A stretch of DNA of 63,152 nucleotides, filler included, from Basidiobolus ranarum (taxonomy: Eukaryota), in assembly GCA_040143965.1 (NCBI GenBank). It is 14 parts of 14 records of this genome, joined end to end, with 100 filler letters (N's around TTAATTAATTAA, not from the genome) between each part and the next. Parts side by side here need not be neighbours in the genome. Positions count along the whole stretch, not along the records: positions 40,755 to 45,163 come from JASJQH010001971.1; 13 more parts are not named here. The stretch is one strand, 5' to 3'. The stretch's first letter is position 1; every line of letters begins with the position of its first letter. The notes below the pieces were generated by a model. It searched no databases. It was not told the origin of the DNA and saw only the letters and a list, made by a program, of their open reading frames with translations. Shown one piece after another: positions 2,713 to 61,700 of this stretch. A program made the translations under genes and the position numbers.

Positions 2713-3232
2713 ATGGCATGTCATGCAGCTTTGAGAGCCATACCAAGAAACACCATGATTTACAATGGAATTATAAAAAGAGTAAACCCATTACTACTCC
2801 ATCGTCTTAAACCACGTCACTTTTCTATTACCTCTTTTACTATGGTTCAAAAACTTACCACCCAAGAACGTGAACTCCACCTTAATACTTTGAAAGCTGA
2901 AGACTGGAAGGAAGTTGAGAACCGTGACGCTATAATCAAAACTTTCCTATTCGACGATTTTAACGCTGCCTTTGGCTTTATGTCACGCGTTGCTCTTCGT
3001 GCGGATAAAGTTAACCACCACCCAGAATGGTTCAACGTAAGTATTCTATTGTTATATTTCCTAGACCTCTAAATGTTGTAAGTATTATCTCTTACTCAAC
3101 ATATTTCTTTTTGCTTTTATTATCCAGGTTTACAATAAGGTGGAGATTACCCTCTCAACTCACGATTGCCAAGGTCTCTCTATAAATGATGTGGAGCTTG
3201 CTAACTTCTGTGATTCTGTGTATCGTCCTTGA
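2713..3232 (+). CDS. PCBD: Pterin-4-alpha-carbinolamine dehydratase; exons 2713-3036, 3128-3232; start could be 2713, 2755 or 2842
   Basis: [46 protein letters not shown] signature across GTAAGT..CAG intron 3037-3127. Confidence 0.93.
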
Positions 3233-5063: not shown

Positions 5064-8000
5064 TGCTGATATTAGGTAAATAGCAGTTCATTATTTGATG
5101 GTTTGCTTATTACTGTTGTGCTTTGTTGGTACATAGCTTGGTCCTTCAAAATGTGAGTAAATTGCTCTAATTGATAGGAATTTTGATTTGATCACTTTTA
5201 CCAATTTTCACTATTCTCTCAACTCTTCTCTAAAACACCTGATTTAGCACTCATGTATTACAGGCATATTTGTAATGATCCAAGTGTGTCCAATAGTCAT
5301 ATGTTATAGTGAAGCATAAATAGACACTGTTAAATTCAATAAAACTTAGGCATCTGATTCACATATCCAGATCTTCTCAAAGATACTTCCAAACCTCCTA
5401 GATACTTTTGTCAGGTTATGAGCCCCAAGCTAGCTGTTGGAGCAATTTCTACCATTACTATGAGTAATGCTTCTTCATCCCCAGAGAATTGTGATGATAA
5501 AGACTTACCCCTTTGGAAGTTTCAGATGCAAATGGTGCTAGAAGACAAGGATCTTTTGGGATTAGTTCCAGGAGAAGAAACAGAGCCAAGGAGACTACCA
5601 GACGCTTTCCTTGTCTCTCACAAAAAGCAGAGGAAGGCACTCTCTACATTATGCTTACATCTCAGAGATTCTCAACTGGGATGCATACACTGAGCCAAAA
5701 TTGCCCACACTGCTTGGGAAACACTTGAGGGACATATGAGGCTAAAAGTATGTCCAATAGGCAAATCAAGTAAGCACTGATAGGGATCATTATTTTGTGC
5801 CTGCCCCATCGCTAACCACAAAGGATGACTTTGAAACATGTTACATTTAGTTCAGAAGCTTCCTGGTTTGCACAAATAACTAAGATTGATTTTCCAGCTT
5901 AATACATATCCAAATAAGGGGGTCTACTTGGGGACTACTCTGCAATAGATGTAGTTGGTAAGGGCACTTTTGTGTGCAATTTGGACCAAAATTTGGCTAA
6001 TTGCATGATATACTCTATGGAGTAAATGTAACCAAGAATCTACTCTCAGTGAGCTAAGCCACAGCTCAAGGGCTAAATTAGGTGCTAAGCACGGCTGGAT
6101 GCACTATTGCAGATCAGAAGAATACAAAACTAGCAACTGGGATCAAAACTTATACAAGCTAAAAATCAACAAATTGTAAACTTAGTATATCAAACATGGC
6201 TGACACCGGTGAAGTACACTATAAAAAATGGCATGAAGGTTGGCCACATTGTGGAACAAAAACTGACAAAAATTAATGTAAATTAGCCTGTTTCAGGCAT
6301 AGTAATTAAAAACATCATTAAATTAGATCTGTCTGAAAGTTGCATGTCTGGAAACATCATGGATAGCAATTCCCAAGTTCTGGAGATATCAATTCCTGTC
6401 AGGACTTTACCCTATTGCATTTTAACCTATGTGGGTGCATATAAGTGTCACACTAGGTGGCAAGAGATTGTATGACCTTGATTAATGTCAACCCAAGATA
6501 TATTTGGGTTTTTTGTGCAAATCAAAATATGAAGCTTTAACTATATTGGGGCACTACAGAGTAATGGCAGAAAAATAATTGGCCCAAAAAATAAGGGTAT
6601 TAAGGAATTAGATTGGTGTAGAATACTACTCACAGGATTTTGCCAGTCTTTGTTCAATATATGAAATTAAGCAACAAACTGCTGTACCTTGTGCTTCATT
6701 GTAAAATGGAGTTACAGAACATGCTAATGGACTATTGTAGAGATGGCAAGTTTATCATCACATGAGCAACCATTGAATTACAAATATTGGGCTAAATTTG
6801 TCTTCACTGCAGTCTATATCAAGAACAGATGCCCAACATGCTTGCTACAAACTTCCACTCCATCTGAACTCCTTTATGGATCAGACCAAGTGTTCATCAT
6901 CTCAGGATGTTTGGTTGCACATTGTTGGTTCAAAAATCTCTAAATTGGAATCTAGGAGCAGTAAATACATATTTATTGGTTATAATGGTGGATACAAACC
7001 CTACAGACTGTTTGATACCCAAAATTACAAGTTAATCAAGCACAGAGATGTGATTTTTGATCAAATAGCAAGCTTTGCACTTCAAAGCACAGTTCTTGAT
7101 CCAGAAAACCCAACCAGCACTGTTCAAGAAGTGCATGGCAAAGTTCCAGCTGGAACTGAGCCCAGTCAGCCAATATTTCAGCTCCAATTTCTTCAGAGAT
7201 GATTCAGGACTTATTATATCATGCTGAAAGAAAAATAAGGAGAAATCAACCAGGGAGCTGGCAGAACACTTCTATTGAAGATGTCTGTGTGTATGCAGCA
7301 CTCTGTCATAGCCACAGGTCTTGAATCAAGCTCTGAAGTGTCCAGAATTAAAAATACCAGGACAAAGCAATATCCAATGAGCTTTAGTCACTTCTGGACA
7401 ATAAAATATGGGCTTTAAATTGTCAACCTCTAGGAAGGAAACCAATAGGTTGCAAATAGATCTATAAAGCCAAACACCAAGCTGGTCAAACCATTGAAAG
7501 ATAGAATATCAAGCCTGTATCAGCATTAATGGATGCAAAGGTGGGATTAATGTGATTCTATTCAAATTTGTCCCCAAATAACTCAAATCAAACCTATGAG
7601 TTTTCTTAACAGTCTATGGTTGGCAACTCAAGGTATACAATGGGTAGAACAAGTCCAGATATCGTGTGGCAGTTGGAACTGTCCACTAATATCACAAAAT
7701 CCTAGATCTGAGCACATAACTGCATTAAAATAAATATTCAAGTATTTGAGAGGAACTGTAAATCAAGTTCTGTAATACTCTAGCACTCCTGATGCACAAA
7801 ATTTGAAGGCTACAATGATGCAGACTTTGGAATAAACCTTGATGATATAAGATCAACAACTGGGTATGCTTTTTGGTATGGTAATAGGGCTGTAGCTGGG
7901 AATAATCAGAAGCAACTAACAACAACACTTTCCATCATGGAAGCAGAGTACATGGCTGCCTCCACTACTACACACAAAGCTTTGTGATTAAGCAAGATAT

Positions 8001-11245: not shown

Positions 11246-13510
11246 ATGTCAAATATTCCTGCTATGCCCAGTGTGTCTGAAAACACACTGGATTCTGGTA
11301 ATGTCCCTAACGAACCAGGGACTTTAAACCCCACAAATTCACCTAACAACCCAACTGATAACAATAACACTCCAAACATGCCCGGTGAACATATTAAAGA
11401 ACCTTACGAAACTAACGTTCCCAATATGCCGAACATGCCAAATATGCCAATGGAGGCCGGGTCGACTGTACCACCAGAATCAAATCCCGTTGTTCAGTCA
11501 CCGCCCGTGATATCTCCGGAACACACTCAATTGACGAAGGAAGAAGCTCAACAACAAATTGATGTCGAGTTATCTAAATCTAATACACCCGTTCACACTT
11601 TCAATCCCGAAGATTCACCTGAAGAAAAAGTTAGAAAAGCCAAGGAAGCCGCAGGCTCGGTTATCACCAATAACCCTCTATTGAGTGGTCCAAATGTTAC
11701 CAAGGGGATAATCAGTGATGTGTCGCTTGACAAAAACGACGAATCTTCTCATCCTCTAGCTCGCTCTTCCACAACTGCAACCAATAAGTCCGCCACTTCT
11801 ACTGCTTCTTCTCTTCCTCCTCCGGTTATCGGCTGGAAGGAATCCAACGAAAAATTTCTAGAGACCTATTCAGGCCAAGAATGGCAAAATGCCCTTTGCT
11901 TGGTTACCCTGGTTGTGGTAACTTACATCCTTGTCAGTCTTGGGCTTGGCTTTGGCTGGTGTATGATCGTTTTGATTTTCGCGGGTATGTTTCAATGGCT
12001 GGGATGGCAGTATAATAGTGAAGACAGAGAACTTATACCCATTAATTTAATTTCTTTAGCTCAATATTACATCAATTCTGTAAAAAGATTTAGAAGAAAT
12101 GTCAAGGACGATATCACTCGCCAGTTATCTATTGCCAAGGTTGTCACTTAAAAACAAGATTCTTTTCTGCTTATGATAACTAATTACCGAGATTCTATCA
12201 TTAACAGCTTCTTACTGATACGGAGTCAACTGAGTGGCTGAACACGTTTCTGAGCAAATTTTGGTTGATTTATGAGCCAGTTTTGTCAGCAACTATTGTT
12301 GGCATAGCTGATGGTATTTTAGCTGCATCTACTCCTGGATTTTTAGACTCGCTTCGCCTTTCAGAGTTTACTTTGGGAACCAAGGCGCCACGAGTAGAAT
12401 CCGTCAAGACTTTCACCAACGATGACGAGGAAGTTGTGGTGAGTATATACTTAATACATGTGTCACTTCAGAAGCAAATGATTGATTTTTGTCTAAGGAA
12501 ATGGAATGGGACGTATCGTTTACCCCTAACGATCTCGAAGATCTTACCCCACGTCAAGTGAGGAACAAGACGAATCCAAAAGTGGTTTTGGAAGTCCGTG
12601 TTGGTAAAGGATTTGTTGGTGCTGGAATGCCTATTTTGGTGGAAGATATTGCCTTTAGCGGTCGTATGAGAATTAAATTGAAGCTCATGAGTAACTTTCC
12701 TCATATGCAAGCAGTGGATTTATCGTTCATGGAACCTCCAGAAATTGACTATGTTCTGAAGCCTCTAGGAGGTGAAACGTTTGGTTTTGATATTGCTCAC
12801 ATCCCTGGTCTGTCTTCTTTCATCAAAGAGCAGATTCACGCTGTACTTGGGCCAATGATGTATAATCCTCACGTATTCACTCTGGATATGGAGCAGCTGA
12901 TAAGTGGGGTCGATACCGAGGCTGCCATTGGAATTTTAAAAGTCCACATTCGCCATGCTAGAAACTTGAAGAACCTTGAAGTGCTCGGCCTCTCTGACCC
13001 GTATGTTAGACTCCATATCAACAATAGAGCTGAACTAGGCCGTACTGCTGTTAAGGAAAATACATTGAATCCAACTTGGGACGAAACCTTCTTTATTTTA
13101 GTTCACAACCTTAATGAGACACTCTTGCTGGAAATCTTTGACAAGGAAGAAATCAAAAAAGACCGAAGCTTGGGCACTGCCTCATTTAATATGGCCACTT
13201 TATTGGATACGCCTAATCAAGATTATATAGCTGCCAAAGTCATAAGAGAAGGGGGCAAAGAACGTGGTGAGGTATACTTTGATGTAATGTACTATCCAGT
13301 AGTGGAGCCCACTATCCAAGAGGATGGTACTCCTACCCATGTTGAGTCCAATCATGGAATTCTCAAAGTTTTTGTTCATCAAGCCAAGGATCTTGATAAG
13401 ACGGCTTCCACCAAACTTAATCCCTATGGCATTGTAAAACTCAACGGCACCAAAATCCTCACCACTAAAGTGTTAAAGCGAAAAGCAAATCCAGTATGGG
13501 AAGACCCGGT
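11246..13510 (+). CDS. TCB: Tricalbin (SMP + C2 domain ER-PM tether), 3'-truncated; introns 11985-12059, 12140-12207, 12439-12497
   Basis: Hydrophobic hairpin, then ESTEWLNTFLSKFWLIYEP and LSEFTLGTKAPRV (SMP), KPLGGETFGFDI, C2 domain GLSDPYV...TLNPTWDETF, start of a second C2. Confidence 0.92.
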
Positions 13511-36143: not shown

Positions 36144-37065
36144 NNNNNNNNNNNNNNNNNNNNNNNNNNNNNNNNNNNNNNNNNNNNTTAATTAATTAAN
36201 NNNNNNNNNNNNNNNNNNNNNNNNNNNNNNNNNNNNNNNNNNNCCGAGTTTCACATGAGTGATATCAATGGCAGAGAACAAAATCTCCGTGATTTTCATG
36301 AATTGGGGAGTTTTGGGGCTAAAAATAACAGAATTCCTGAGATATTTACCGAATTCCTAAAATCTACCATCGAGCATGAAAGTCCAATCTTAAAATCTTA
36401 CTTTACCAAACCTGAAGTGTCTGTGAGACAGAATAGGAGATGCCGAATAGGTCAAAGGTTAGATTCCTGATCCTATTCGCTAGGTTTATGGATCCAGTAG
36501 GTCAAATGTTGGCACACAGCACAGCCTCTAACCAAATCGGGCACTGGTCAGTTAAAATCAAGAAATGAATGCCTGAAGATTGAACTTGATGAGTATTTCA
36601 ATATTTGCAAATAAAGCTTATGCTTCTGGTATCATTAGTTGGAGATGACTAGTCAAAAGATTTGCTATAATACGATGCCACATAAACACTTCCCGATTTC
36701 GATCAAATCCATCACTCTCTCATTTCATTTGCTAGCTGCAAATTACAAATCTGCAGAATACTCCACCTCGTCCCCTATATAATAGTAGGCCCGCGCCTTC
36801 CCAAACGAGGTTACTCTCAGTTTCTATTTTTCATTCGTCAATTTCTCTGCTTCCGTCGAATCTGCCCTTGTTGTTATCTCATTTATATTATACATTTGAA
36901 TTGCAAATCAGCATTCCCTATTTTCCGTTGCTCTTGCCAGTCTCCTCAGCTTCTATTTGAATCATTCGCTGTTGGCTCAAACGGTTATTTCTTATGCAAT
37001 AGTAATCAATCCCAACCACAATTATTTATCATTTATCGTTCAGTTAGACTATTCTGAACTTGAAT

Positions 37066-37557
37066 ATGGATGGCAAAAGTAGACAGGACGTATCAAGACT
37101 TGATATAGCCTTTCTTTTGAACGCCTCGGATGACATTGTAGATCAGACTATATCTCTTGCGATCGAATACCCAGAAAAAGTGCTTGAAGAACACGAGGAT
37201 ACTCTCTCACGAGAGTCAGACGACACACAGGACTATGAAGAGGCTATGGGAATACCTAGTCAATTCGTATCTACCGATAGTTCACCATCCTCCTCTGATG
37301 TCACATCCGATGTAAACAAAAGACACCAATGTACCCTATGCTCTCGAAGCTTTCAAAGACCAAGTGCACTTCGAATCCATATGTATTCGCATACGGGAGA
37401 GAAGCCCTTTGAATGTAGTTATCGTGGGTGTCAGAAACGGTTTAACGTAGAATCCAATCTTCGGCGGCATTTACGCACTCACTTACCCCTTCCACAACAG
37501 CCTACGCGTGGAAAGAAGGTTCGCCTTAAGTGGGTCAATCTTTCGCCAGAACCATAG
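37066..37557 (+). CDS. Small two-finger C2H2 transcription factor
   Basis: HQCTLCSRSFQRPSALRIHMYSH-TGEKPF-ECSYRGCQKRFNVESNLRRHLRTH. TATATAA at ~36776. Confidence 0.92.
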   Translation: MDGKSRQDVSRLDIAFLLNASDDIVDQTISLAIEYPEKVLEEHEDTLSRESDDTQDYEEAMGIPSQFVSTDSSPSSSDVTSDVNKRHQCTLCSRSFQRPSALRIHMYSHTGEKPFECSYRGCQKRFNVESNLRRHLRTHLPLPQQPTRGKKVRLKWVNLSPEP

Positions 37558-39489: not shown

Positions 39490-40646
39490 TTACATCATCC
39501 CCATAGATCCGCGTCTCTTGCGTTCATTGTATTTGGCTATGAGAAGAGCTACATCCAGTGATTGTTCATAATTCAATCTTGGATCACAGGAAGTTTGGTA
39601 GTTCTGGGACAGATGGTGGTGGTCCAACTCCATAAATCCACCTACACACTCGGTCACACTATCTCCAGTCATCTCCAAGTGTACACCATTCAAAGTACGG
39701 CCATACTCCAGATGAATGCTGAAGCTGCGGCTTATCTCTTGGATGATGTTCCTGAAATTACGCGTTTTGACGCCAGAGCTAGACTGTTCGGTGCTATAAT
39801 TCATATGAGCTATTTGAGATGATTAGAGTGGAAGGAAGTGTATATTGACTTACTTTCCGTGCATGGGATCACAAGCCCATACCACCACATGTCCTGAATC
39901 TTGAACAGCCTTGATGTGTTTGGGAAGATGCTCATCCACCTATTTCCATCACAAAGTATTAATAGTTGGCACTTATCCTATCCACAGAAGAAAACATCTC
40001 TTACAAGATTACAGCCATAACGTGTGATTAGAGTGACCTTGCCAATCTCCTTGTTTGGGTTTACGATATCTAATAGCCGCGATAATTCTTCGGGATCCAT
40101 AGATGGGCCACACTTGATCCCAATTGGATTCTCTATACCAGAAAAGTATTCCACATGTGCGCCATCGATCTGCCTTGTACGGTCACCTATCCATATAAAA
40201 TGTGCACTGGTATTGTACCATTTCATCTCACGCGTATCAGGGTCGGGTAGTTTTCTGGTTAGCGCCTCTTCATAGGGGAGGATCAGTGCTTCATGAGATG
40301 TAAATAAATCTATATTGCTAATTTGGGAAGCATCAGCCCCCACTACTTTCATATAATTCAAGGCATCTGATAGTCGATTTGCTATTGATTGATATTCCTC
40401 CCTAGTATGACTGTTTCGAAAATGTTGAAGGTCCCAGGCCAACGGATCATGGAGATCTATATAGAATTATGGTTAAATCTTCATTCCCATTAAGGAAGGA
40501 AGTGAATTTAGCTGACCTGCGAACCCAGCTAACAATACACACTGGTTAGTGAAAATTCAGAAAATATAATTGGTCCGGGTGAAGAAAACTTACAGTGTAA
40601 GATGGTTCTTATATAATTCAAACTGGCAGTCGAATGAAAATACGCT
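39490..40646 (-). CDS. Class II DAHP synthase, 5'-truncated; exons 40594-40646, 40517-40528, 40005-40456, 39854-39939, 39490-39793
   Basis: FTSHEAL, YNTSAHFIWIGDRTRQIDGAHVEY, NPIGIKCGP, WACDPMHGNT, GVHLEMTG..VTECVGG, CDPRLN. All junctions are GT-AG and in frame. Confidence 0.95.
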
Positions 40647-42233
40647 CTACAGTGNNNNNNNNNNNNNNNNNNNNNNNNNNNNNNNNNNNNNNNNNNNNTT
40701 AATTAATTAANNNNNNNNNNNNNNNNNNNNNNNNNNNNNNNNNNNNNNNNNNNNAAGCACATCTTAATATAAATTCTCGTTATGTACTAAAATGTGTGGA
40801 CATAGAGAAGTTAGGATGGTGTCATGAATACACCCATGAGCACATGGTAACACATTTGGAAACTGTGAAGAACAAAAAATGCAAAGAGAGTGAGTTTTCC
40901 ACATTTTCGTCACGAAGGAAAGGCTATCATAAATGCAACCTCTTACAATATGGTTGAGCAGCTTACCAGTTACATTCTGAGGAGATCAGGTTGCCATTTT
41001 AGCCATCAATATGTTTAAACTCATGGCTAAGATACTTGAAGTTACCTTTGATAACTCATTATGCTTACTTTCCTACTTAATCAATCAGTACTCTATTTGA
41101 ATTTTGTACATAAGTGTTATCAACATTTAGCTTATATTGCTGTTTATTGTATCGCTCCTCAGCAATCAATATCACAAACAGTTGCAATTACCAAAAGAAG
41201 TTAGATATAAGCAACAATGATTGGCCAAGGGTAAAAGCTCGACTCATTTTTCACTTTATGAGAAGTAACCATGCTACTCATCCTCTTACCCTTACTGAAG
41301 CAAACAGCATACAAATCCCCGAACTATTCTAGTATAAATACCCTCAAAAGGAGTAATAATGCTATTACTACTCAATATTGACGTAGAGGACGGTATATTC
41401 TTGAGAATGAAATATGCCAGCATTGTAGTTAATATGGATTGCATGCTGTAATGTATTTTTTTGACGTAATACTAACCAGCTAGCCCATGCTGAAGGTCAT
41501 GGCATTTGGTGCATAGTAGTGAAATTTTGGTGCATGGGTGTACTGTGGTTATTGAATGAAAAAATTGCTGACACAAGGGCAGTCAATACACTCAAAACGC
41601 TACTGTGTTGCATGGACACAACTCTCAGCTGTATGATTACCGCTAAATCAAACTCTTTACGATGCCGGGAAATGATAACGAACTTACTGTATGTATCATA
41701 CTCGGAAAGAGTTCTTTGAGTATTCTAGTAACGTGGCCGAGTCAAAGTCACCAATTTGTCGTAATACCAATGCAAATAGGATTTTATATTATGCCATGCT
41801 ACGATATAACAATATGTGGGTGACTCTGATATGTTGGTATTTTCTGGCGAGGTGAAGCGCAAACCATCCCAAGTATGACGTTTTGGGCTCAGCCAATGGT
41901 ATAATGACCAATTGGATTCCATCCAAATATGGCAAAAATATGGTAATGCAGTCCAATTACTTGTAGTATTTCGGAACGATTGGCCACTAACATAGCATCG
42001 AGTCGGAAATCTATGAATCTCAGCTTTCCTATTTACCATCAGAAATCAACAGTCATATTTATGATACGAAATGCAGCATTGATAATCACATCATCCATAT
42101 GAAACAGGCAAATTATCGTCAATTCACTTTCCAGGCTCATAATGGACCATATAAATGCCTTCAATCAACATTGGTTCCTTTATCCATTCTTTTCCGCCTC
42201 CACTTCTAGTCTACACGTGAGGATCGATTGACT

Positions 42234-42986
42234 ATGTCAAAGTTTATTGACTTCGAGAAACCATCTTTGTGGTATGCATTGGCGTCTATCTTTTTCAATC
42301 CTTTGTTTTGGAACATCATAGCACGTCAAGAATATCATAACAAAATATTGACTAAGCTGGCTGGCGGTAACCCTCGTAGAGGTTGCTATGGTTTGGCAGT
42401 TACCATTTTTTCACTTGGAATCTTTCGTGATTACCTCTATTCTCAAGCTTTAAGTGACCAGCCAGTACATCCACTTCTTCAAACTGAATTCGTTAAGCTT
42501 GTAGCAATTGGCTTATTCCTCAGTGGTAACATTCTTGTTCTCAGCTCCATGTATGCTCTTGGTGTTACTGGAACTTACTTGGGTTTGTATTATTAGTATT
42601 TGCACCGAGAGATACTCTCCTAAATTTTCGTTTCTAAATTGAATAGGTGATTATTTCGGAATTTTAATGGACCAACGCGTGACCGGCTTCCCATTCAATG
42701 TGTCTAATAACCCTATGTATCAAGGCTCAACTATGGTATTCCTGGCTTCTGCGTTGTGGTATGTTATATATTCTATTCCAAGACAAATGATTTGTTAGAT
42801 TTACAACATCTGAATAGGTATGGAACACCAGCTGGTATCGTTCTTACTGCCGTAGTATATACCAACTACAATATTGCTTTGAGATTTGAAGAGTATGTGG
42901 AATTTAAATTGTCTATGATAATCAGATACTAATTCATCAACTGATATAGGCCATTCACTGCTATGATATACTCCAAGCGCAAGTAA
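42234..42986 (+). CDS. OPI3: Phosphatidyl-N-methylethanolamine methyltransferase; exons 42234-42582, 42647-42758, 42818-42892, 42950-42986
   Basis: IFFNPLFWNIIARQEY, LSSMYALGVTGTYLGDYFGILM..RVTGFPFNV..NPMY.GST, FEEPFTAMIY. Confidence 0.95.
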
Positions 42987-43624
42987 ACTTGGTTTAACAT
43001 TTCAACACTGCAATAACTTAATAGTCCTGGTACTTGTATATTCAAAATGCTGTAGATCACGCACTATCTCTTGAGATTAGTCGACTGTCTCTTAAAAATA
43101 AACCAGTTCACTATAGCTTAGTAATGAATGAGATTTAGAATGGTTAAATCGATATTCTGACTACAGTCATATTATTCTCTGAGCAGTCAAAAGTAACACT
43201 AAGATAAAGTTGTCGATTAACGTTAGCGTTTTCAATAGTTCACTGAGGTCGTGAAGTTCGCTAACATAGAAATTATCCAATAATATTAAGCCTATCTAAA
43301 TCTAAATTGATTTGAATTATATATCGCAATCTTTAGCCAATCATCAATTAGCACGTACTTTTTGAGTAACAAAGGTCAAGGCTCGTAATAATAAGAAACC
43401 CTCCTACAGTACTGCTAATCGTCACAGTGGCTGAAAATTAGAAATGTTGAGCATACTTTCGAATAGTGTTGGAGTCATGTGATGGGAATCAGAATAGGAT
43501 GTTTTTGATACTTTACTTTCAATAAATTAACATATGTATATATCCGAAAGAAATCCTTGAGATACATAAGATATAGATTTGTTCGATTCTGGTGTGAATC
43601 TTTTACAGCCGAATGGGTGAACTA

Positions 43625-43740
43625 CAGTATTTAAACTTAAGATTGAGACGAATGGAAATGTTTTTAGACGAATGTGAATTTGATTTGAGACGAAACAATG
43701 CTAGTTTTTAGACAAATAAGGAATATTTTGTAGACAATTT
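43625..43740 (-). mobile_element. Candidate right end of the Fanzor-carrying transposon: TA|CAGT terminus plus five repeats of ~22-bp period
   Basis: Plus strand TA(43623-43624)CAGTATTT... AGAC cores in TT(G/T)AGAC(G/A)A start at 43646, 43666, 43688, 43710, 43732. Confidence 0.55.
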
Positions 43741-43749
43741 ACCTGTAAA

Positions 43750-43830
43750 AATCTAAATCTCTTCGAGAAGAGAAACCGTGTGCGAGACGGTGATGTAGTA
43801 AAAACAGTAACAAAAGTTACTGACTTCGAG
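43750..43830 (-). ncRNA. Candidate omegaRNA scaffold core (three stem-loops at the Fanzor 3' end); true boundaries unknown
   Basis: Hairpins CAGTAAC-TTTT-GTTACTG (43805-43822, overlaps the stop), ACCGT-N7-ACGGT (43775-43791), TCTCTT-CTCG-AAGAGA (43758-43773). Confidence 0.5.
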
Positions 43831-45163
43831 AAAACGCTGTTGGGCGCCTATGACCTCTGACCACGTCTTTGGAAATCTTGAAGATGTTCTTTGAAGCATA
43901 TTGACATCACGTTACCATATCATTCCGCAACTTTTACAAGCGAGAGCACTATTTAAATCAGTGATTGCTTCAGTAAGTGACATTTCATTACATGAATGGC
44001 ATGTCTATATAAGTAAAAGTTTTAGATGTATAATCGTAAAATAAAAACAGACTGTGACATCACCTTTGAAGTACAAAGTTAGTCTACAATAGCAAGTAAT
44101 AATTCACCAGAATTTTGTCTGGATTCAAGCTGACGCCAAAGTACCTCAGTGACCCCAGTTCTGAGGTCGTTGAACTTGACTGAATCTTTTCCAAACATTC
44201 CATTACCGAAAGATATGATGGGCAACTTGTCTTTATGGTGTTGAAATTGCTCTGGCTTCCAATATCTGGTGGCTCTTCTAAGAAAACACTAAAATGAAAA
44301 TAGTAATCACTTCTATGTTTCCTGGACTTACTTTGAATTTATTTGTGCTTCTTGTTTACTGCTATAGTTTGCCTGTCTTTTTCTTATTCTTTCTTTCTTT
44401 TCTTCCTATTCTTTGTGATCTGTCGCTTTGATTTATTATACTTTCTACCACCATTAACCAAAATGTTTACCATTGCTTGTCTAGCCCTTTGCACGCCTTG
44501 ATACAAATGAAAACGATTCTTGGCTATAGAATGGCGAGTGAATGCCAGTATTTTCTGAAGGTGCAGCAAAATGTAAGTGACATATTGCAAGTATGGCGAA
44601 GTGTTAGCTGTTTTTGCTGTTGGAATATTTTTAAAAATGGTGCTCATATCTTCAACACACATTATTTCCATTTCCCGCTTTGCATGCCTTTTGGAGCCTG
44701 TGTATGTATAGTACTCCACAGTAGAACATCTTCTAAGCTGGTGAGAAATATCACCATCAACATACGAGGCAGCGAATACTTGGTTTCGATTAGGATCTAT
44801 TGCAGAAAGAGAAACATTGTTCATGTTCTCGTTTTTCATAACATTTCCCAGCAGCGAAATGTCAAGATCTTGGCCAGAATAATAAGCATAGTCATCAATA
44901 TGTATTTTGACACTTTTTTGAAGGACAACATCTGCAGTGAAACCGTCAGTTCTGATCAAATTTGAAAATGCTAGTTTTCTCTTTTTGTTTGGGTCTTGTA
45001 GATCTTGAAAGCTATTATACAAGTACTTGTTAGCAAATGAGTATATGAATATACGCTCGTATACCTACCTATCTAATCTTAGTCTCTTGAAATCAAACAC
45101 CTTGTTAAACATTTCAAGTTTAGCCTCATAAGTGGTTGGCATTTTTATACCAGAAAAAGACGA
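43817..45163 (-). pseudogene. Fanzor1 (eukaryotic TnpB-family RNA-guided endonuclease), intron-containing, inactivated, 5'-truncated by contig end; introns 45012-45068, 44278-44331, 44005-44063
   Basis: IRTDGF (WED), AIDPNRNQVF (RuvC-I), RRCSTVEYY, IPTAKT, PIISFGNGMFG, IVD*LCTSK (RuvC-II), CHSC..CKSC zinc finger, W*RDVNASKNI (RuvC-III), C-terminal RPTAFSR. Confidence 0.88.
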
Positions 45164-47980: not shown

Positions 47981-49281
47981 ATCTGTATAAAACTCAAAGT
48001 AGCAATCTATTAAAATAGATGCTGAATTAAAGTAATGATCATCTACCAATGAAATTCGTATGATAGTCGGATAATTATGGATCAATCTTGGTGGTCATTC
48101 GCTGCATTTCGTCTCTTGGGCACCACTAATGGAGCAAATCATTTTTCAAGCGTCGATACAAACATGAAGAAATACGATGAAACTTGGTGTCCTGGGAGAA
48201 TACAGACCATTAATCGCACGTTCCTGTATTTCACACGGCGATTGATTTTCAGCAAATTCAGGGGTAACTCTGAGCTCAGTGTGGGAGTTAACTGAGGTTA
48301 CAATTGAATGACACACCGCCACTTGAGATGTATAGTTTCAGAATTTGTGCTGTTTCAACCTTTGTAGAATAAATTTGCTTCCAGAAGTCCATTCGTAGCC
48401 TCAGCAATGTCTCTAGCTAATCAAAGCACCCAAAGCATCCAGAGCCAGTCGAAGGGGCCAGCGACTGTGCTAGGTGTTCGAGCATCTACATTAATAATTC
48501 AAGAATAAGGATTGATTGAATTCAAAACTACACTCAATAATGTTGGAACCAAACTATCTAATTCTTTTCACTTCAAGATCCAACCGAAAGGTTAACCAAG
48601 GTGGGAAATTTGGTATGCAAGTTCCAAAATTACCGAAAACCTAAAAAATGGGTATTATCGCGGATCTATGGGATCGTTACTTGGTTCGTAATTAAGCGAT
48701 TCTCACTTGGGAATAAGCTTTTTAGCTTTCAACCTAATCTGAGTGAGTGTAACGAATGATTGACGCAGCTATCAGTAGCTTGGCTTGAGCAAGATCAAAC
48801 TCTGGGCTTTGGCAAGGTGGTTGTTTCATTGTCTGCAGTATTGAAGAAAGGTACGTGAGAAAATGGATACAACTTAACGAGAGATATGGTCTCATGACCC
48901 GTTTAAGTATGTATGAACCTCCCAGAAACAGAATTAGATTATCATCTTGCGTGTTGCGGTCAAATTCCCCGCCAAGTATTCGCTAGATTCCAAATAGAGT
49001 GAGCATTTAAATCTTTTAGGAAACATGCAGTATTTCAATTGAGCTTTACGTATGTTCACCTGATCGTCATTCGTTAATGAATACAAATAGAAAGGCTCCA
49101 AATTTAGTTGTCAGTCGAAAATAAATGAATCTGAAGCGGCGAGTTTGAATATAAACGAGGTAAGGCTGCTGATCTTAGGACACATAAATCCCTCTCTTCT
49201 CTTTTATTTCAATTTCTTTACCTTATTATTTCTTTTATTCTAGTGTTCATATCGTATCTCTAGCATATAAATAGATTCTTG

Positions 49282-49664
49282 ATGGGTACCGACATTGAAT
49301 TACAGCAGACCGGCACCTATTTTGTCGAAGACAAAAAACCACAAGACGTGGAAAGCTGCCACCATGAAGAAACTGGTGGACAGCCAGCACTGAATAGAAC
49401 TCTCAACGCGCGCCATTTATCAATGATCTCTATCGGTGGCACCATTGGTACCGGTCTCTTTCTTGCCAGTGGTATTTCTATCGCCAAAGGTGGGCCAGGT
49501 GGAGCCTTGGTCGCATATAGTTTGATTGGTATCATGGTATTCTTTCTGATGACCAGCTTGGGCGAGATGGCTACTTACATGCCTATATCCGGTTCGTTCA
49601 ATGCTTACGGTGCTCGTTTTGTCGATCCGGCCTTCGGTTTTGCTCTCAGTTGGAATTACTGGTA
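49282..49664 (+). CDS. APC-superfamily amino-acid permease (YAT/LysP-like), 3'-truncated
   Basis: LNARHLSMISIGGTIGTGLFLASG..GGPGG..MTSLGEMATYMPISGSF..RFVDPAFGFALSWNYW. Confidence 0.93.
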
Positions 49665-52525: not shown

Positions 52526-53751
52526 CGTCTAGATTTGTATTAGTCAAATTGGAGGCCTCAGCCAATCAATTGGCCACATGGACACTAGATCGACGCATTA
52601 GTTTAGCAGCGTCATTGTGAGACGTATACACTATATTTTAAGGAGTTTAAAACGTGCTTCCGTAGTAAACGTGTAGTGTAAACGTGAAGCTGGATGGGAT
52701 GGAATGAGATAGCCAATGCCGCTAATGTATTGATTTCTTCAATCCTCTGTCTGGAATAATATGGTTATTACCACGGTTAGTATAATTATGGTTCAATAAC
52801 TGGTGTAATTATGGTGTTTATTACAATGTCTGGTGCGAATCCCCCACCCCTTGGGGAAATATGGATCTGTATATTTCGAGATATGGCTCAGTATCCACCT
52901 TCCAAACGAGTCTATCGAAAGCATCATAAATGTATTTACGGCCCCCTCCACCTTAACCAGGAAACCCTAGAAACTCGAGTTTATTGGTGGTCGAAAGGCG
53001 TCTGTCATTGGGGTAGATTTGCCATAAGCGATCGTCCAAACAATCGTCGTCGTGCGAAAATATTTGATCCTGACTGTTGGAATCAATGTCTAGACTGGGT
53101 TGTAGTTACTTCGGTTTTGGAAAATATTTCTGAAACCATATTGACTAGCATAGACATTGTGGTGGTCGCCAATTTGAAGAAGGCACCCCCGCATGGCTTC
53201 ATTCGATGAGATTTTGCGAGGCTTTAAATCCAGACTGACTGGTGGAAGCCGCTAATAGCAGATGTAGGTTGCGTTGTGCCGTTTGTGCATACTTTGACTA
53301 TGATTGCTTCAACACTTTCGTTTTATGACGCTATAGCGTCAGTTCAAGTGATGCCCATAGACCGGCACAAGCAACCAACAATCCACATATTCGCAATATT
53401 CAGTACAAGCGATCTGTATATTCGCAATATCCAGTACAGGCAAGCAACTGGATCATCCACATATGTAACTCTCGGGTTAATCTTGCTTTAAAAAGGCCCC
53501 CATTCGTCGGGGATGCAGTATATGTTGAGCTTCCAAATATACAACAATTGAAATCATCGAAATCATTTTGTGCATTATTTATGAAGTGATTGGCTTCATT
53601 GGGAAACATCTGGAAACTTTCATCCGCCAGATAATTTCTAAATATGGAGGGTGGTGGATTTACTGAATATCATTTGAGAATATGCATGTATATAAGCCTC
53701 CTGTGTGCTAAAGGAATGCGGCATCTTACTAGAGTCAATCATACTATTACA

Positions 53752-54164
53752 ATGAAACATAGCCCTTTGGAAATCACACTGCAAGATAAATTCTTGGTTT
53801 TGCACGGCTCCTCAACTGAAGCTGCTGGTGCAGTTTTAAGAGGTAGTGTCATCCTTCGTTTGAAGGAGACCGTTAAACTTAGATCACTTGTCCTCAAATT
53901 GAGAGGAAAAGTTGATGTCAAATGGTCTTCCGCCGCTGGACCTAAACCTGACGTATACCACATCAAAAAAACTGTATTGAGTTCATCTCTTACGATTTTA
54001 GAACCTCAAGAACATTTCCATACACTTCCCGCTGGCGAAACCAAATACGAAGCTGAGTTTCCATTCAATGCAGATCTCCCAGAGACTTTACACACCTACC
54101 AAGGTCATATTTATAACACCTTAAAAGCTGTCTCCGAGCGTTCATTCTTGGTCAGAAATATCAT
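53752..54164 (+). CDS. Alpha-arrestin (Arrestin_N domain), 3'-truncated
   Basis: LVLHGSSTEAAGAVLRGSVIL.L.E..K..SL.L.L.G, LPAG...Y..EFP....LPET pattern of fungal ART proteins. Confidence 0.8.
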
Positions 54165-58760: not shown

Positions 58761-61700
58761 GATAGAAATAGCAATTAGATCACTTTTACCAATTTTCACT
58801 ATTTTCTCAAAACTTCTCCAAATCACCTCAAATTTTCACCCATGCTTAGCAGGCATGTTTGTTATGATCTAAGCATGTCCAATAGTCCTATTTCATAGTA
58901 AACTATAAATAGGACATATTCAATTCAATAAAATTTAAGTGCCTAATTCACAAATCCAAGTCTTGTCCAAAACACTTCCAAATCCCCTGAACACTTTTAT
59001 CAGAATCTCCTTTACTTTTTCAGATATTGAATCTATAGAAGACTGCTCCAATGTATTTTTCTTGTGTGACTCAGATTGGTTCACTATTGAAATTTTGCTG
59101 TATCTGCATTCCAGGAAAATATGCTAGTGATCTATGTTCTTGCTTTTCAAACTTGGTGCATAGCCAGGTCTTAGTTTGTTTCATCTGATTTTATGAAAAT
59201 TAGGTAAAGAGTAACTCATTATATACTAGTTAGTTTATTTCTACTCTGATTATTTTACACTCAATTCTGCTATTCAAAAATGTGTGTTTATTGCTCCAAT
59301 TTTTGGAAATATTAATTAGTTCACTTTTACCCATTTTCACCATGTTCTCAAAACTTCTCCAAATCATGTCATATTTTCACCCATCCTTTACAAGCATGTT
59401 TGTTATAATCTAAGCATGTCCAGTAGTCCTCTTTCATAGTAAACTATAAATTGGAAACATTCAATTCAATAAAATGTAATGGCCTAATTCACAAATGCAA
59501 ATTTTGTCCAAAACACTTTTATCTGGTTGTGAGCCCCAAAATAGCTGTTCAAGAATGTCTACCAGTACTATTACCAATGGTTTGCATCCACAGAGTACTT
59601 TGATAGTGAAGACTTTCACCTTTTGGAAATGCAAGTTGCACATGGTCCTAGAAGACAAAGACCTTTGGGGATTTGTTACAGGAGAAGAAATAGAGCTCAA
59701 GGGACCACCAGAAGTTAACCTTGCCTTTCACAAGAAGCAGAGGAAAGCACTCTCTACACATTGTCTACATCTCAGAGACTCTAAATTAAGGCACATACAC
59801 TCAGCCAAAAACATCCAAACTGTTTGGGACACACTTGAGGGACTATATGAGACTAAAAGTCTAGCAAATAGGCTAAATTTTAGGTCAAAATTGTACTCAA
59901 TTCACATAAGTCTTGATGATTCTATGGCTAATCATATAAATTGGATAAAAACTATGGCTGATCAGCTTTCATCCATTAGAGCACCTCTAAATGAGGGTGA
60001 CTGGTCATGACACTACTTGGGAGCCTGCAAGATGACTGTTGGAACCTCACAAGTGCCATAGAATCAAGATCACAACCTTTACAATGGAATGTGTTGGTGC
60101 AATGCCTTTGAATGAGGAAATAAGGAGATCTAATATTTAGCAAAATAATGCAGATCAGGCATTTTTTGGAGCTGTGAAATATCCAACAGGCTTCAATAAG
60201 TAAACCACCAATAGGAAATCAATCATTTGCAAGTATTGCAAGAAACCAGACCCTTTAATCCAAGATTGCTTAGAAAGAAATTTTGCCAAAGAGCTTAAAT
60301 TGGAACATCCATATCAAGTAAGCACTTATGGGGATCATCTATTTGTGTTTGCCCTATCAAAAGCCACTAAGGAAGACTCAGAAATGTGGTACTTTGATTC
60401 AGGAGCTTCACACCATATGTCAACCATGAAAGATTTACTTTCCTATGGAAAACTCATCCAAACAAGGAAAGTCTACAAAGGCAATGCACATGCTCTAGAT
60501 GCAGTTGATAAGGGCACAGTTGTGCTCAATTTAGACCAATATTCAGCTACACTATCTGCAGAATTGGCTGACATACTTTATGTACCAAATACTGCCAGGA
60601 ATCTACTCTAAGTAAGCCAAGCAACAGCCCCAGGAATATATTCTGCATTCAGCAAGGCTGGATGCACTATCACCAATCAGAATAATACTAAATTAGCTAC
60701 TAGGACCAAACTCAAAATATATACAAGCTAGAAATCAACAACTTGCGTTCTGAGCATGCAAACTTGGCCAAAATTGGTGAAATAAGTTGTCAAACAAGGC
60801 ATAGAGGATTAGGCCACACTGGCATGAAAACTAATTCTTACAATCTGAAACCAGCTTTTTCAAGCTTAGAAATTGAAAATATTATCAAATTGGATCTGTA
60901 TGAAGGTTAAACATATGGAAAGCATTACAGACAGCCATTTTTAAGCTCTAGAGAGATCTAATCCACCAACAAATGTGCCCTGATTTATTCTGACCTATAT
61001 GGGCCCATTAAAAACATCTCACTGGGTAGCAACAGGTACTTTATGACCACTGTTGATGACCAAATAAGATATACTTGTGTGTTGTTTCTCAAATCAAAAT
61101 CTGAAACCCTAGCTTTGCTCAGGCACTACAAAGAAATGGTAGTGAAGGAATCAGCCCAAAAAATAAGGATACTAAGAAGTGATAGTGGTGAAGAATAGTG
61201 CTCAAGACACTTCAACAGTGTTTGTTCTAAACATGTAATTAAGCAGCAAACTACTGTACCTTATACTCCACAGCAAAATGAAGTAGCATAGTGTGCTAGT
61301 AGGACCATAGTGGAGATGACAAGATTAATGTTACATGATCAGAAGTTAGATTACCATTATTGCGCTGTATCTGTCTCCACTTCAGTCTACATCAAAAACA
61401 GATGACCAACAAGATTGCTAAAAAGTCTACTCCATGTGAAGCCCTATATGGATCAAGACCAAGCATAAATTATCCCCATATCTTTAGTTGCACAGCTTGT
61501 TGCCTAATTCCACCTCAAAAATGGTCTAAATTGGCAACCAAAAGCAGAAAATGTCTATTTCTAGGTTACTGTGATGGATTCAAAGTTTTCAAATTGTCTG
61601 CTCGCAGAAATCAGAAGTCAATTGAGTGCAGAGAGGTGATTTTTGATGAAAAATCTAATTTTTCAATTGAATCTGTATATCTTGATCCTGAGAACACAAT

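Follow-up and report, generated by a model that had tools for sequence, protein, structure and literature searches.

Fanzor1 proteins are eukaryotic homologues of TnpB, omega-RNA-guided RuvC endonucleases that are carried by DNA transposons. Here we describe the remnant of an intron-bearing gene of this kind, which lies on the minus strand at positions 43817-45163 of a 63,152-nt stretch of DNA from the fungus Basidiobolus ranarum (assembly GCA_040143965.1); we refer to the whole stretch as the window. Two sets of described proteins serve for comparison. In SpuFz1 from Spizellomyces punctatus (PDB 8gkh, 9ceu-9cez), Mg is coordinated by D383, N385, E541 and D606, and 19 of the 42 Fanzor loci reported for this fungus are full length, with many partial copies alongside (Saito 2023, PMC10432273). 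The catalytic site of Fanzor proteins has been described as 'rearranged', with Gly or Pro at the position of the canonical RuvC-II Glu and a substitute Glu ~45 residues onward (Jiang 2023, PMC10530073). For Mucorales, a catalogue of Fanzor1 families lists four in Rhizopus oryzae, 10 in Mucor circinelloides and three in Phycomyces (Bao & Jurka 2013, PMC3627910), and a structure is available for PpFz1 from the Mucorales fungus Parasitella (Xu 2024, PMC11423790). These Mucorales elements (ROr, MCi and PBl), together with PpFz1 (Parasitella parasitica, PDB 9cf0/9cf1), form the second comparison set.

The family of the B. ranarum locus resembles SpuFz1 in the order of its motifs, in the DPN, DE-x-x-TS and RD residues that provide the Mg ligands and in an RP..F C-terminal tail, and B. 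ranarum resembles S. punctatus in that partial copies are present. The family differs from SpuFz1 in its three short introns and in a K/R-rich linker that separates the RuvC helices from the FGxG strand; moreover, the copy in the window has been truncated and inactivated, neither an omega RNA nor inverted repeats were found at the locus, and a full-length relative from Mucor flavus (P0097) is only 16% identical to SpuFz1 in a structural alignment. The named proteins closest to the window copy, with 45-72% identity, come from Mucorales such as Rhizopus, Mucor, Gilbertella, Cokeromyces and Spinellus. Its own host, Basidiobolus, belongs to another phylum. The split RuvC and zinc-ribbon (TNB) core is common to TnpB (IS200/IS605, IS607) and Cas12f/g/m, to which the family shows weak profile matches (E 0.008-0.09). 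In contrast to bacterial and archaeal TnpB, however, the family has a eukaryotic host, introns, a larger N-terminal half and a Glu that has moved from the canonical RuvC-II strand to a motif before the zinc ribbon, as described for Fanzor proteins (Jiang 2023). The locus is very probably a dead, 5′-truncated copy of an intron-bearing Fanzor1 gene residing in the Basidiobolus genome.

Structure of the remnant gene

When the minus strand is read inwards from the contig edge, the first preserved coding piece (SSFSGIKMPTTYEAKLEMFNKVFDFKRLRLD, 45069-45163) is open up to that edge and is followed by intron 1 (45012-45068, 57 nt, GTAGGT..AATAG, phase 2), which is used exactly by the public gene model P0307 and is matched in L001, a metagenome contig that carries an intact relative. 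The next exon (44332-45011, delimited with alignment A1) encodes the TDG motif of the WED domain, the RuvC-I motif DPN, the helical part of RuvC and a K/R-rich stretch; its RuvC-I sequence, AIDPNRNQ, is intact, with the Asp codon at 44795-44797 and the Asn codon at 44789-44791. Intron 2 (44278-44331, 54 nt, GTAAGT..TCTTAG, phase 2) is likewise matched in L001, and the relative P0322, which reads undisturbed through ..KKNRKKRKKERIRNKYAKGSSKQEVQTNSK, has its terminus (..TNSK) exactly at the donor of this intron. The exon that follows (44064-44277, from translation and alignment A1) encodes WKP..PIISFGNGMF and LLLAIVD-TAA-LCTSK, with ISFGNGMF representing the canonical RuvC-II position, at which the window copy has Gly in place of Glu. 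Intron 3 (44005-44063, 59 nt, GTGATG..TATAG, phase 0), also matched in L001, lies directly 3′ of TSK. Finally, the last exon (43817-44004, from translation and homology) encodes the zinc ribbon, W-TAA-RDVN and then ASKNIFKISKDVVRGHRRPTAFSRSQ, and terminates at the stop codon 43817-43819. All four Cys of the zinc ribbon are retained in two CxxC motifs, at 43990-44001 (TCHSC) and 43927-43938 (ACKSC), as is the RuvC-III Asp codon of RDVN (43906-43908), which has a TAA before it and a 2-base insertion after it.

L001 was the one useful locus in a metagenome scan that used P0280 as the query. When spliced, it encodes 447 aa with 0 stops and carries the motifs DPGR, FGDG, INEFKTSK, CxxC..CxxC, WNRDVMASKN and GNGRPQVF. 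Its three introns, all GT..AG (1965-2022, 58 nt; 2683-2750, 68 nt; 2953-3016, 64 nt), are identical in position and phase to those of the window copy. In both genes the first intron falls between F.F.KL and TDG, in phase 2 with a junction Ser 21 residues before TDG, the second falls in phase 2 where the basic linker gives way to the ..KxP..FGxG strand, and the third falls in phase 0 immediately after TSK. The three introns are genuine features of the family, and the splice model is accordingly one predicted from conservation.

Four lesions disrupt the window copy. A frameshift lies in the K/R-rich stretch, somewhere within the purine run 44387-44405: the exon preceding intron 2 meets a TAA in its own frame at 44384-44386 and another at 44339-44341, while the frame shared by the exons on both sides of intron 2 does not open until 44406, which places one indel in this run. 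The second lesion is a TAA (44079-44081) at the relocated catalytic Glu codon, where relatives read DE[YF]xTSK. The third is a TAA (43912-43914) at the Gln position of WQRD, and the fourth consists of two extra bases (43898-43899) in RuvC-III. An earlier note on this DNA, made from the sequence alone, had proposed a spliced gene here. Every peptide that it quoted can be read on the minus strand of 43817-45163, its three GT-AG introns are borne out in their GT starts, AG ends and coordinates, and the RuvC-I Asp codon, the interruptions D*L and W*RD, the 2 additional nt and the final stop are all located at the positions given above. The joined splice model itself does not form a single open frame, the additional frameshift in 44387-44405 having been overlooked, and what the note took for a gene 'hidden' behind a partial open reading frame (ORF) is instead a 5′-cut pseudogene with a stop in place of the catalytic Glu codon.

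The 5′ truncation coincides with the edge of a contig. The window consists of 14 contigs of ~4.4-4.5 kb each (1-63152), ordered by descending length, and is not a continuous chromosome; throughout its 63152 nt the linker N44-TTAATTAATTAA-N44 occurs 13 times at ~4.5-kb steps, and features that cross a linker are therefore artefactual. The contig carrying the remnant (40755-45163, 4409 bp, without strand assignment) is flanked on both sides by these linkers. Since neither the open frame nor the similarity to relatives ends before position 45163, where the alignments of P0003 (26-259) and P0097 (370-555) begin, the gene is cut by the contig end. With P0097 as the reference, ~390 N-terminal codons of a full-length Fanzor1 are absent from the contig, which retains only the last WED part of the N-terminal REC/WED half, with the TDG motif. 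The ATG at 45140-45142, whose Met is aligned with a Phe of a second B. ranarum copy (P0330), is internal and not the start of the gene. The window contains one copy, as all 10 query proteins match 43879-45163 and nowhere else (E<=1e-3), and the window pieces align with relatives across 43829-45163. Because the N-terminal half is absent, the Glu codon is TAA and a second TAA and two frameshifts disrupt the reading frame, the window copy cannot act as a nuclease: it is a former member of Fanzor1 that is unable to make an active enzyme.

Relationship to described Fanzor1 proteins

A phmmer search with the 226-aa ORF against 1.84 billion representatives returned 335 proteins at E<=1e-3, the majority of them short fragments, with 154 at <=1e-10, nine at <=1e-30 and a best value of 8.3e-72, a similarity that chance could not produce. 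The Cas12f1-like TNB domain (PF07282), a likeness to TnpB and Cas12f, is found in relatives of the window copy: among 10 long relatives scanned, P0097, P0078 and P0053 scored above the cut-off and P0089 and P0071 below it; scores of relatives go up to 31-43 bits, the cut-off being 26.3 (43.4 bits in P0015). Across alignment A1 the conserved order begins with TDG, DP[GN]R, a helical block (..YQGxQRA..NIL.NG) and the K/R-rich linker of variable length, and continues with WKP..P..FGxGMF, [IV]DE[YF]xTSK, CxxC..CxxC, W[QN]RDxNA and G[RK]P..F.

We compared profile A1, composed of relatives and window pieces, with the PDB, taking matches at E<=1 (20 sequences). SpuFz1 (8gkh) was the best match, with E 2.6e-18 over two stretches corresponding to WED/RuvC-I and RuvC-II/TNB/RuvC-III, followed by the mimivirus TnpB-like protein L79 (1.6e-5), GtFz1 (2e-5) and then LaTranC, TnpB and Cas12m/g/f; the 20 include two unrelated weak matches, ARL13B (0.023) and 5xyi (0.64). 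PpFz1 is not among these 20 sequences and therefore belongs to another Fanzor1 lineage. A single-sequence search of the PDB with P0097 matched SpuFz1 alone (E 1.8e-4). An AlphaFold2 model of P0097, and thus of a full-length relative and not of the window copy, has a predicted local distance difference test score (pLDDT) of 73.2 and a predicted template modelling score (pTM) of 0.61. In a Foldseek search of the PDB with this model, all seven matches at E<=0.001 are Fanzor1 chains (four SpuFz, two PpFz and one GtFz), the best being SpuFz1 (E 7.8e-16, template modelling scores 0.57/0.66); PpFz1 is matched at E 9.1e-12, and Cas12f and TnpB appear only at E>=0.04.

The DPx, DE and RD motifs of the family align with residues 777/779, 935 and 1000 of chain 8gkh_P, a fusion with maltose-binding protein (MBP), and the MBP offset of 394 converts these to the D383/N385, E541 and D606 of SpuFz1. 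The rearranged site likewise has its counterparts in the window family, in which FGNGMF supplies the canonical Gly and D[E]xxTSK the substitute Glu. The motif order from TDG to the RP..F tail, which the earlier note had read as that of Fanzor1, is supported by these profile and fold matches to SpuFz1; the checks that it had suggested included a profile search against TnpB/Fanzor/Cas12 and a fold comparison with SpuFz1, the latter being run here on P0097. Its description of the family as 'uncharacterised' was overstated, given the Mucorales Fanzor1 catalogue of 2013 (PMC3627910) and the PpFz1 structure of 2024 (PMC11423790).

By comparison with these relatives, the intact ancestor of the window copy would have combined a REC/WED N-terminal half with a split RuvC, a CxxC..CxxC zinc ribbon and a basic, disordered linker. 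Its RuvC site would have been of the rearranged type, with Asp-Pro-Asn in RuvC-I, Gly at the canonical Glu position, Glu in DExxTSK and Asp in WxRDxNA. By analogy with SpuFz1, the ancestor may have cut DNA beside a target-adjacent motif, guided by an RNA encoded at its own 3′ end. For this ancestor we infer an RNA-guided mechanism, a transposon context and a nuclear localisation signal (NLS) function.

The basic linker and the 3′ flank

The K/R-rich stretch, NGGxKYNKxRRKxTxKNRKKRKK, is conserved family-wide (alignments A1 and A2). The length of the site varies from almost nothing in P0097, where the model falls to pLDDT <50 at residues 552-560, to >100 residues in P0132 and P0112. These >100-residue insertions, in Hesseltinella (P0132) and Syncephalastrum (P0112), occupy A1 columns ~1000-1150. 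PpFz1 for its part carries a cyclophilin-binding FRI insertion. The K/R-rich stretch is plausibly a nuclear import signal, with RNA binding as the alternative role; an NLS has been predicted in ~60% of Fanzor ORFs, and those tested were mostly at the N terminus (Jiang 2023).

On the same strand as the remnant and 100-175 nt downstream of its stop codon lie four copies of TYGTCTMAA (43643-43715, minus strand), spaced by 20-22 nt. Four of the five matches to this motif in the whole window fall in 43643-43715, for which Tandem Repeats Finder gives a period of 22 nt. The repeats are possibly subterminal repeats of the 3′ end of the element or, alternatively, possibly part of a guide-RNA region.

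Host genome and relatives in other fungi

The contig also carries an intact PEMT gene (phospholipid N-methyltransferase, PF04191; 42234-42986, plus strand), identified by Pfam and protein homology, which has three exons and lies tail to tail with the remnant, ~830 bp separating their stops. Over the first exon, its product shares 98% identity with a protein labelled B. ranarum; its identity to two paralogues of B. meristosporus is 83% and 80%, and that to Mucorales and Umbelopsis proteins 62-71%. As a control for assembly quality we compared it with B. meristosporus PEMT; all three exons are clean, and the contig is therefore not riddled with errors. The Fanzor1 locus itself is publicly annotated as P0307, 'hypothetical protein K7432_015190 [Basidiobolus ranarum]', a 233-aa product that is 100% identical and whose gene model terminates at the first TAA. 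The host is Basidiobolus, not Mucorales.

At least two B. ranarum-labelled copies exist, and they are diverged. The second, P0330, is located on a 14,883-bp contig and is 65-73% identical to the window pieces; its gene model stops short of the DE motif and is missing ~125 residues, RuvC-I among them. In B. ranarum the family therefore has more than one copy and has decayed at least in part.

Among 30 relatives' clusters looked up, 16 carry an organism name, and 15 of these 16 are from Mucorales genera, in keeping with the resemblance to Mucorales Fanzors that the earlier note had pointed out. The remaining cluster, that of P0024, bears the name Klebsiella pneumoniae through P0303 ('hypothetical protein, partial [Klebsiella pneumoniae]'), a sequence on a 535-bp contig that most likely represents contaminating fungal DNA in a bacterial assembly. 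A further protein search gave 32 closest matches, comprising two from B. ranarum, 14 from Mucorales and 16 without an organism label; the closest of the label-free matches are P0322 (86% identity over 39% of the query) and P0308 (73% over 91%). No close relatives of the window copy were found in metagenome contigs or in viral contigs, and a word-based search for longer relatives found none, which is weak evidence. The nearest clusters of the ESM Atlas occur most often in Mucoromycota, an observation that serves as a lead only; one cluster there is automatically named 'GIY-YIG homing endonuclease', which we regard as a mislabel.

For phylogenetic analysis, rows were chosen by query coverage (>=150 or >=80 residues) and shorter rows were dropped. 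In a quick tree of 79 rows, the window copy falls in a 17-row clade with Rhizopus, Mucor and Gilbertella copies, with a support of 100 in the Shimodaira-Hasegawa-like approximate likelihood ratio test (SH-aLRT). A subfamily tree of 45 rows places both B. ranarum copies inside a 36-row clade (SH-aLRT 99) that otherwise holds Mucorales and label-free copies; internal support is weak, and the two copies are not resolved as sisters. The window copy is 66% identical to the copy of R. microsporus (144 columns), 65% to that of M. mucedo (96) and 57% to that of Gilbertella (134), compared with a mutual identity of 63-67% amongst these three. We also applied the approximately unbiased (AU) test to a tree uniting seven named Mucorales rows without the window copy, a group that was named after the tree had been inspected; its log-likelihood is 32.2 lower and it is not rejected (p 0.064).

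Elsewhere in the window, other contigs carry fragments of Ty1/copia-type retrotransposons at 59480-60010 and 6777-7202, both on the plus strand, with gag (PF14223, 85 bits) and a retroviral-polymerase SH3-like domain (PF25597). Neighbouring contigs contain pieces of ordinary eukaryotic genes for a class-II DAHP synthase (39978-40466, minus strand), an SMP and C2 domain protein (12486-13508, plus), a C2H2 zinc-finger protein (37048-37557, plus), an amino-acid permease (49264-49662, plus) and an arrestin-N protein (53635-54162, plus).

Discussion

The reading of the locus as a dead copy of a Fanzor1 gene builds on direct observation of its homology, its lesions, its conserved introns and its host. 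Several results nevertheless weigh against it. None of the four window fragments has a significant Pfam match, and the 30-aa zinc-ribbon fragment gave no match to PF07282, so that the family assignment rests on the relatives. The fold of 43560-43900 (minus strand) is no better than that of shuffled sequences (z -0.44), with no omega RNA shown there, and Rfam gave 0 matches over the whole window. The contig has no candidate for a terminal inverted repeat (TIR), only short imperfect inverted pairs, and no target-site duplication was shown on it, although a contig that lacks the 5′ end of the element would not be expected to show a TIR pair. The lesion calls, moreover, rest on a single assembly, and the purine-rich run that holds one of the four lesions is of low complexity, the kind of sequence in which assembly errors occur. 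A genetic code in which TAA is a sense codon was ruled out, as both PEMT and the intact relatives can be read without it.

If the lesions were errors of sequencing or assembly, and the 5′ half of the gene lay on another contig, the locus would be an active Fanzor1 gene. The contig, at only 4409 bp, does end inside the gene, the first frameshift falls within the purine run 44387-44405, and the terminal branch of the window copy is short (0.25 in the 79-row tree and 0.09 in the 45-row tree). However, the two TAA codons are substitutions at a conserved Glu and a conserved Gln, the 2-base insertion lies outside any homopolymer, PEMT on the same contig is clean, the public annotation P0307 likewise ends at the first TAA, and the second B. 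ranarum copy is, as annotated, defective too. We therefore consider an active gene very unlikely. Still more improbable is a domesticated or truncated product of 233 aa, comprising the WED and RuvC-I part and a basic tail, which would start at ATG 45140-45142 and perform a role independent of nuclease activity, such as RNA or DNA binding. A TATAAAA sequence immediately upstream of this ATG, the annotation of the ORF as a protein (P0307) and 233 codons free of lesions speak for such a product, but neither the open frame nor the homology stops at this ATG, both continuing upstream as far as the contig edge, the other B. ranarum copy has Phe where this Met stands, and the exons further downstream can still be recognised in their former frames, as would be expected of recent decay and not of a new end to the gene.

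The nearly exclusive occurrence of Mucorales amongst the named relatives, and the contaminant-like Klebsiella pneumoniae label within the family, could also be accounted for by a chimera or contaminant, in which part of a Mucorales Fanzor was misassembled onto Basidiobolus DNA. Against this, the remnant shares its contig, at a distance of 0.8 kb, with a PEMT gene whose product has 98% identity to a protein labelled B. ranarum and 83% to a B. meristosporus protein, the second, diverged copy is also B. ranarum-labelled and is located on a 14,883-bp contig, and no Mucorales relative exceeds 72% identity. A chimera is the least probable of these three explanations. A decayed, 5′-truncated Fanzor1 gene of Basidiobolus thus stands as the preferred reading: the locus is an ordinary decayed transposon gene, and neither a hidden intact nuclease nor a new kind of system.

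The position of the B. ranarum copies raises the question of whether the Basidiobolus lineage of Fanzor1 was exchanged horizontally with Mucorales through its transposon. NCBI taxonomy places Basidiobolus in the phylum Basidiobolomycota; Mucorales belong to Mucoromycota. Such a transfer would fit the placement of both copies, unresolved as sisters, within a Mucorales-rich clade (SH-aLRT 99), and the fact that the window copy is about as close to Mucorales copies as these are to each other, when a conserved housekeeping protein such as PEMT is only 62-71% identical between Basidiobolus and Mucorales or Umbelopsis. On the other hand, the AU test (p 0.064) leaves the tree that keeps Mucorales together unrejected, ancient paralogous lineages would also explain the pattern, and the case is weakened further by the lack of an organism label on 16 of the 32 closest relatives. 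We therefore regard the transfer as a tentative and somewhat doubtful proposition.

Fanzor1 in early-diverging fungi, introns in Fanzor1 genes and NLS-like stretches have already been published. In the literature that we searched, no paper names Basidiobolus together with Fanzor, although Basidiobolus may be listed in the catalogues that supplement Saito 2023 and Jiang 2023; the combination of 'Fanzor' with 'Zoopagomycota' retrieved a citation of Saito in a reference list only. The present analysis relabels the 233-aa 'hypothetical protein' P0307 as a fragment of a Fanzor1 pseudogene, a correction of small practical value, and it documents remnants of Fanzor1 in Basidiobolus. Intact, intron-bearing members of the family do exist, namely the 690-aa P0097 of Mucor flavus and the environmental L001, and these are candidates for work on the nuclease. 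If the cross-phylum transfer were true, the spread that has been proposed for Fanzor among eukaryotes would gain a fungal example.

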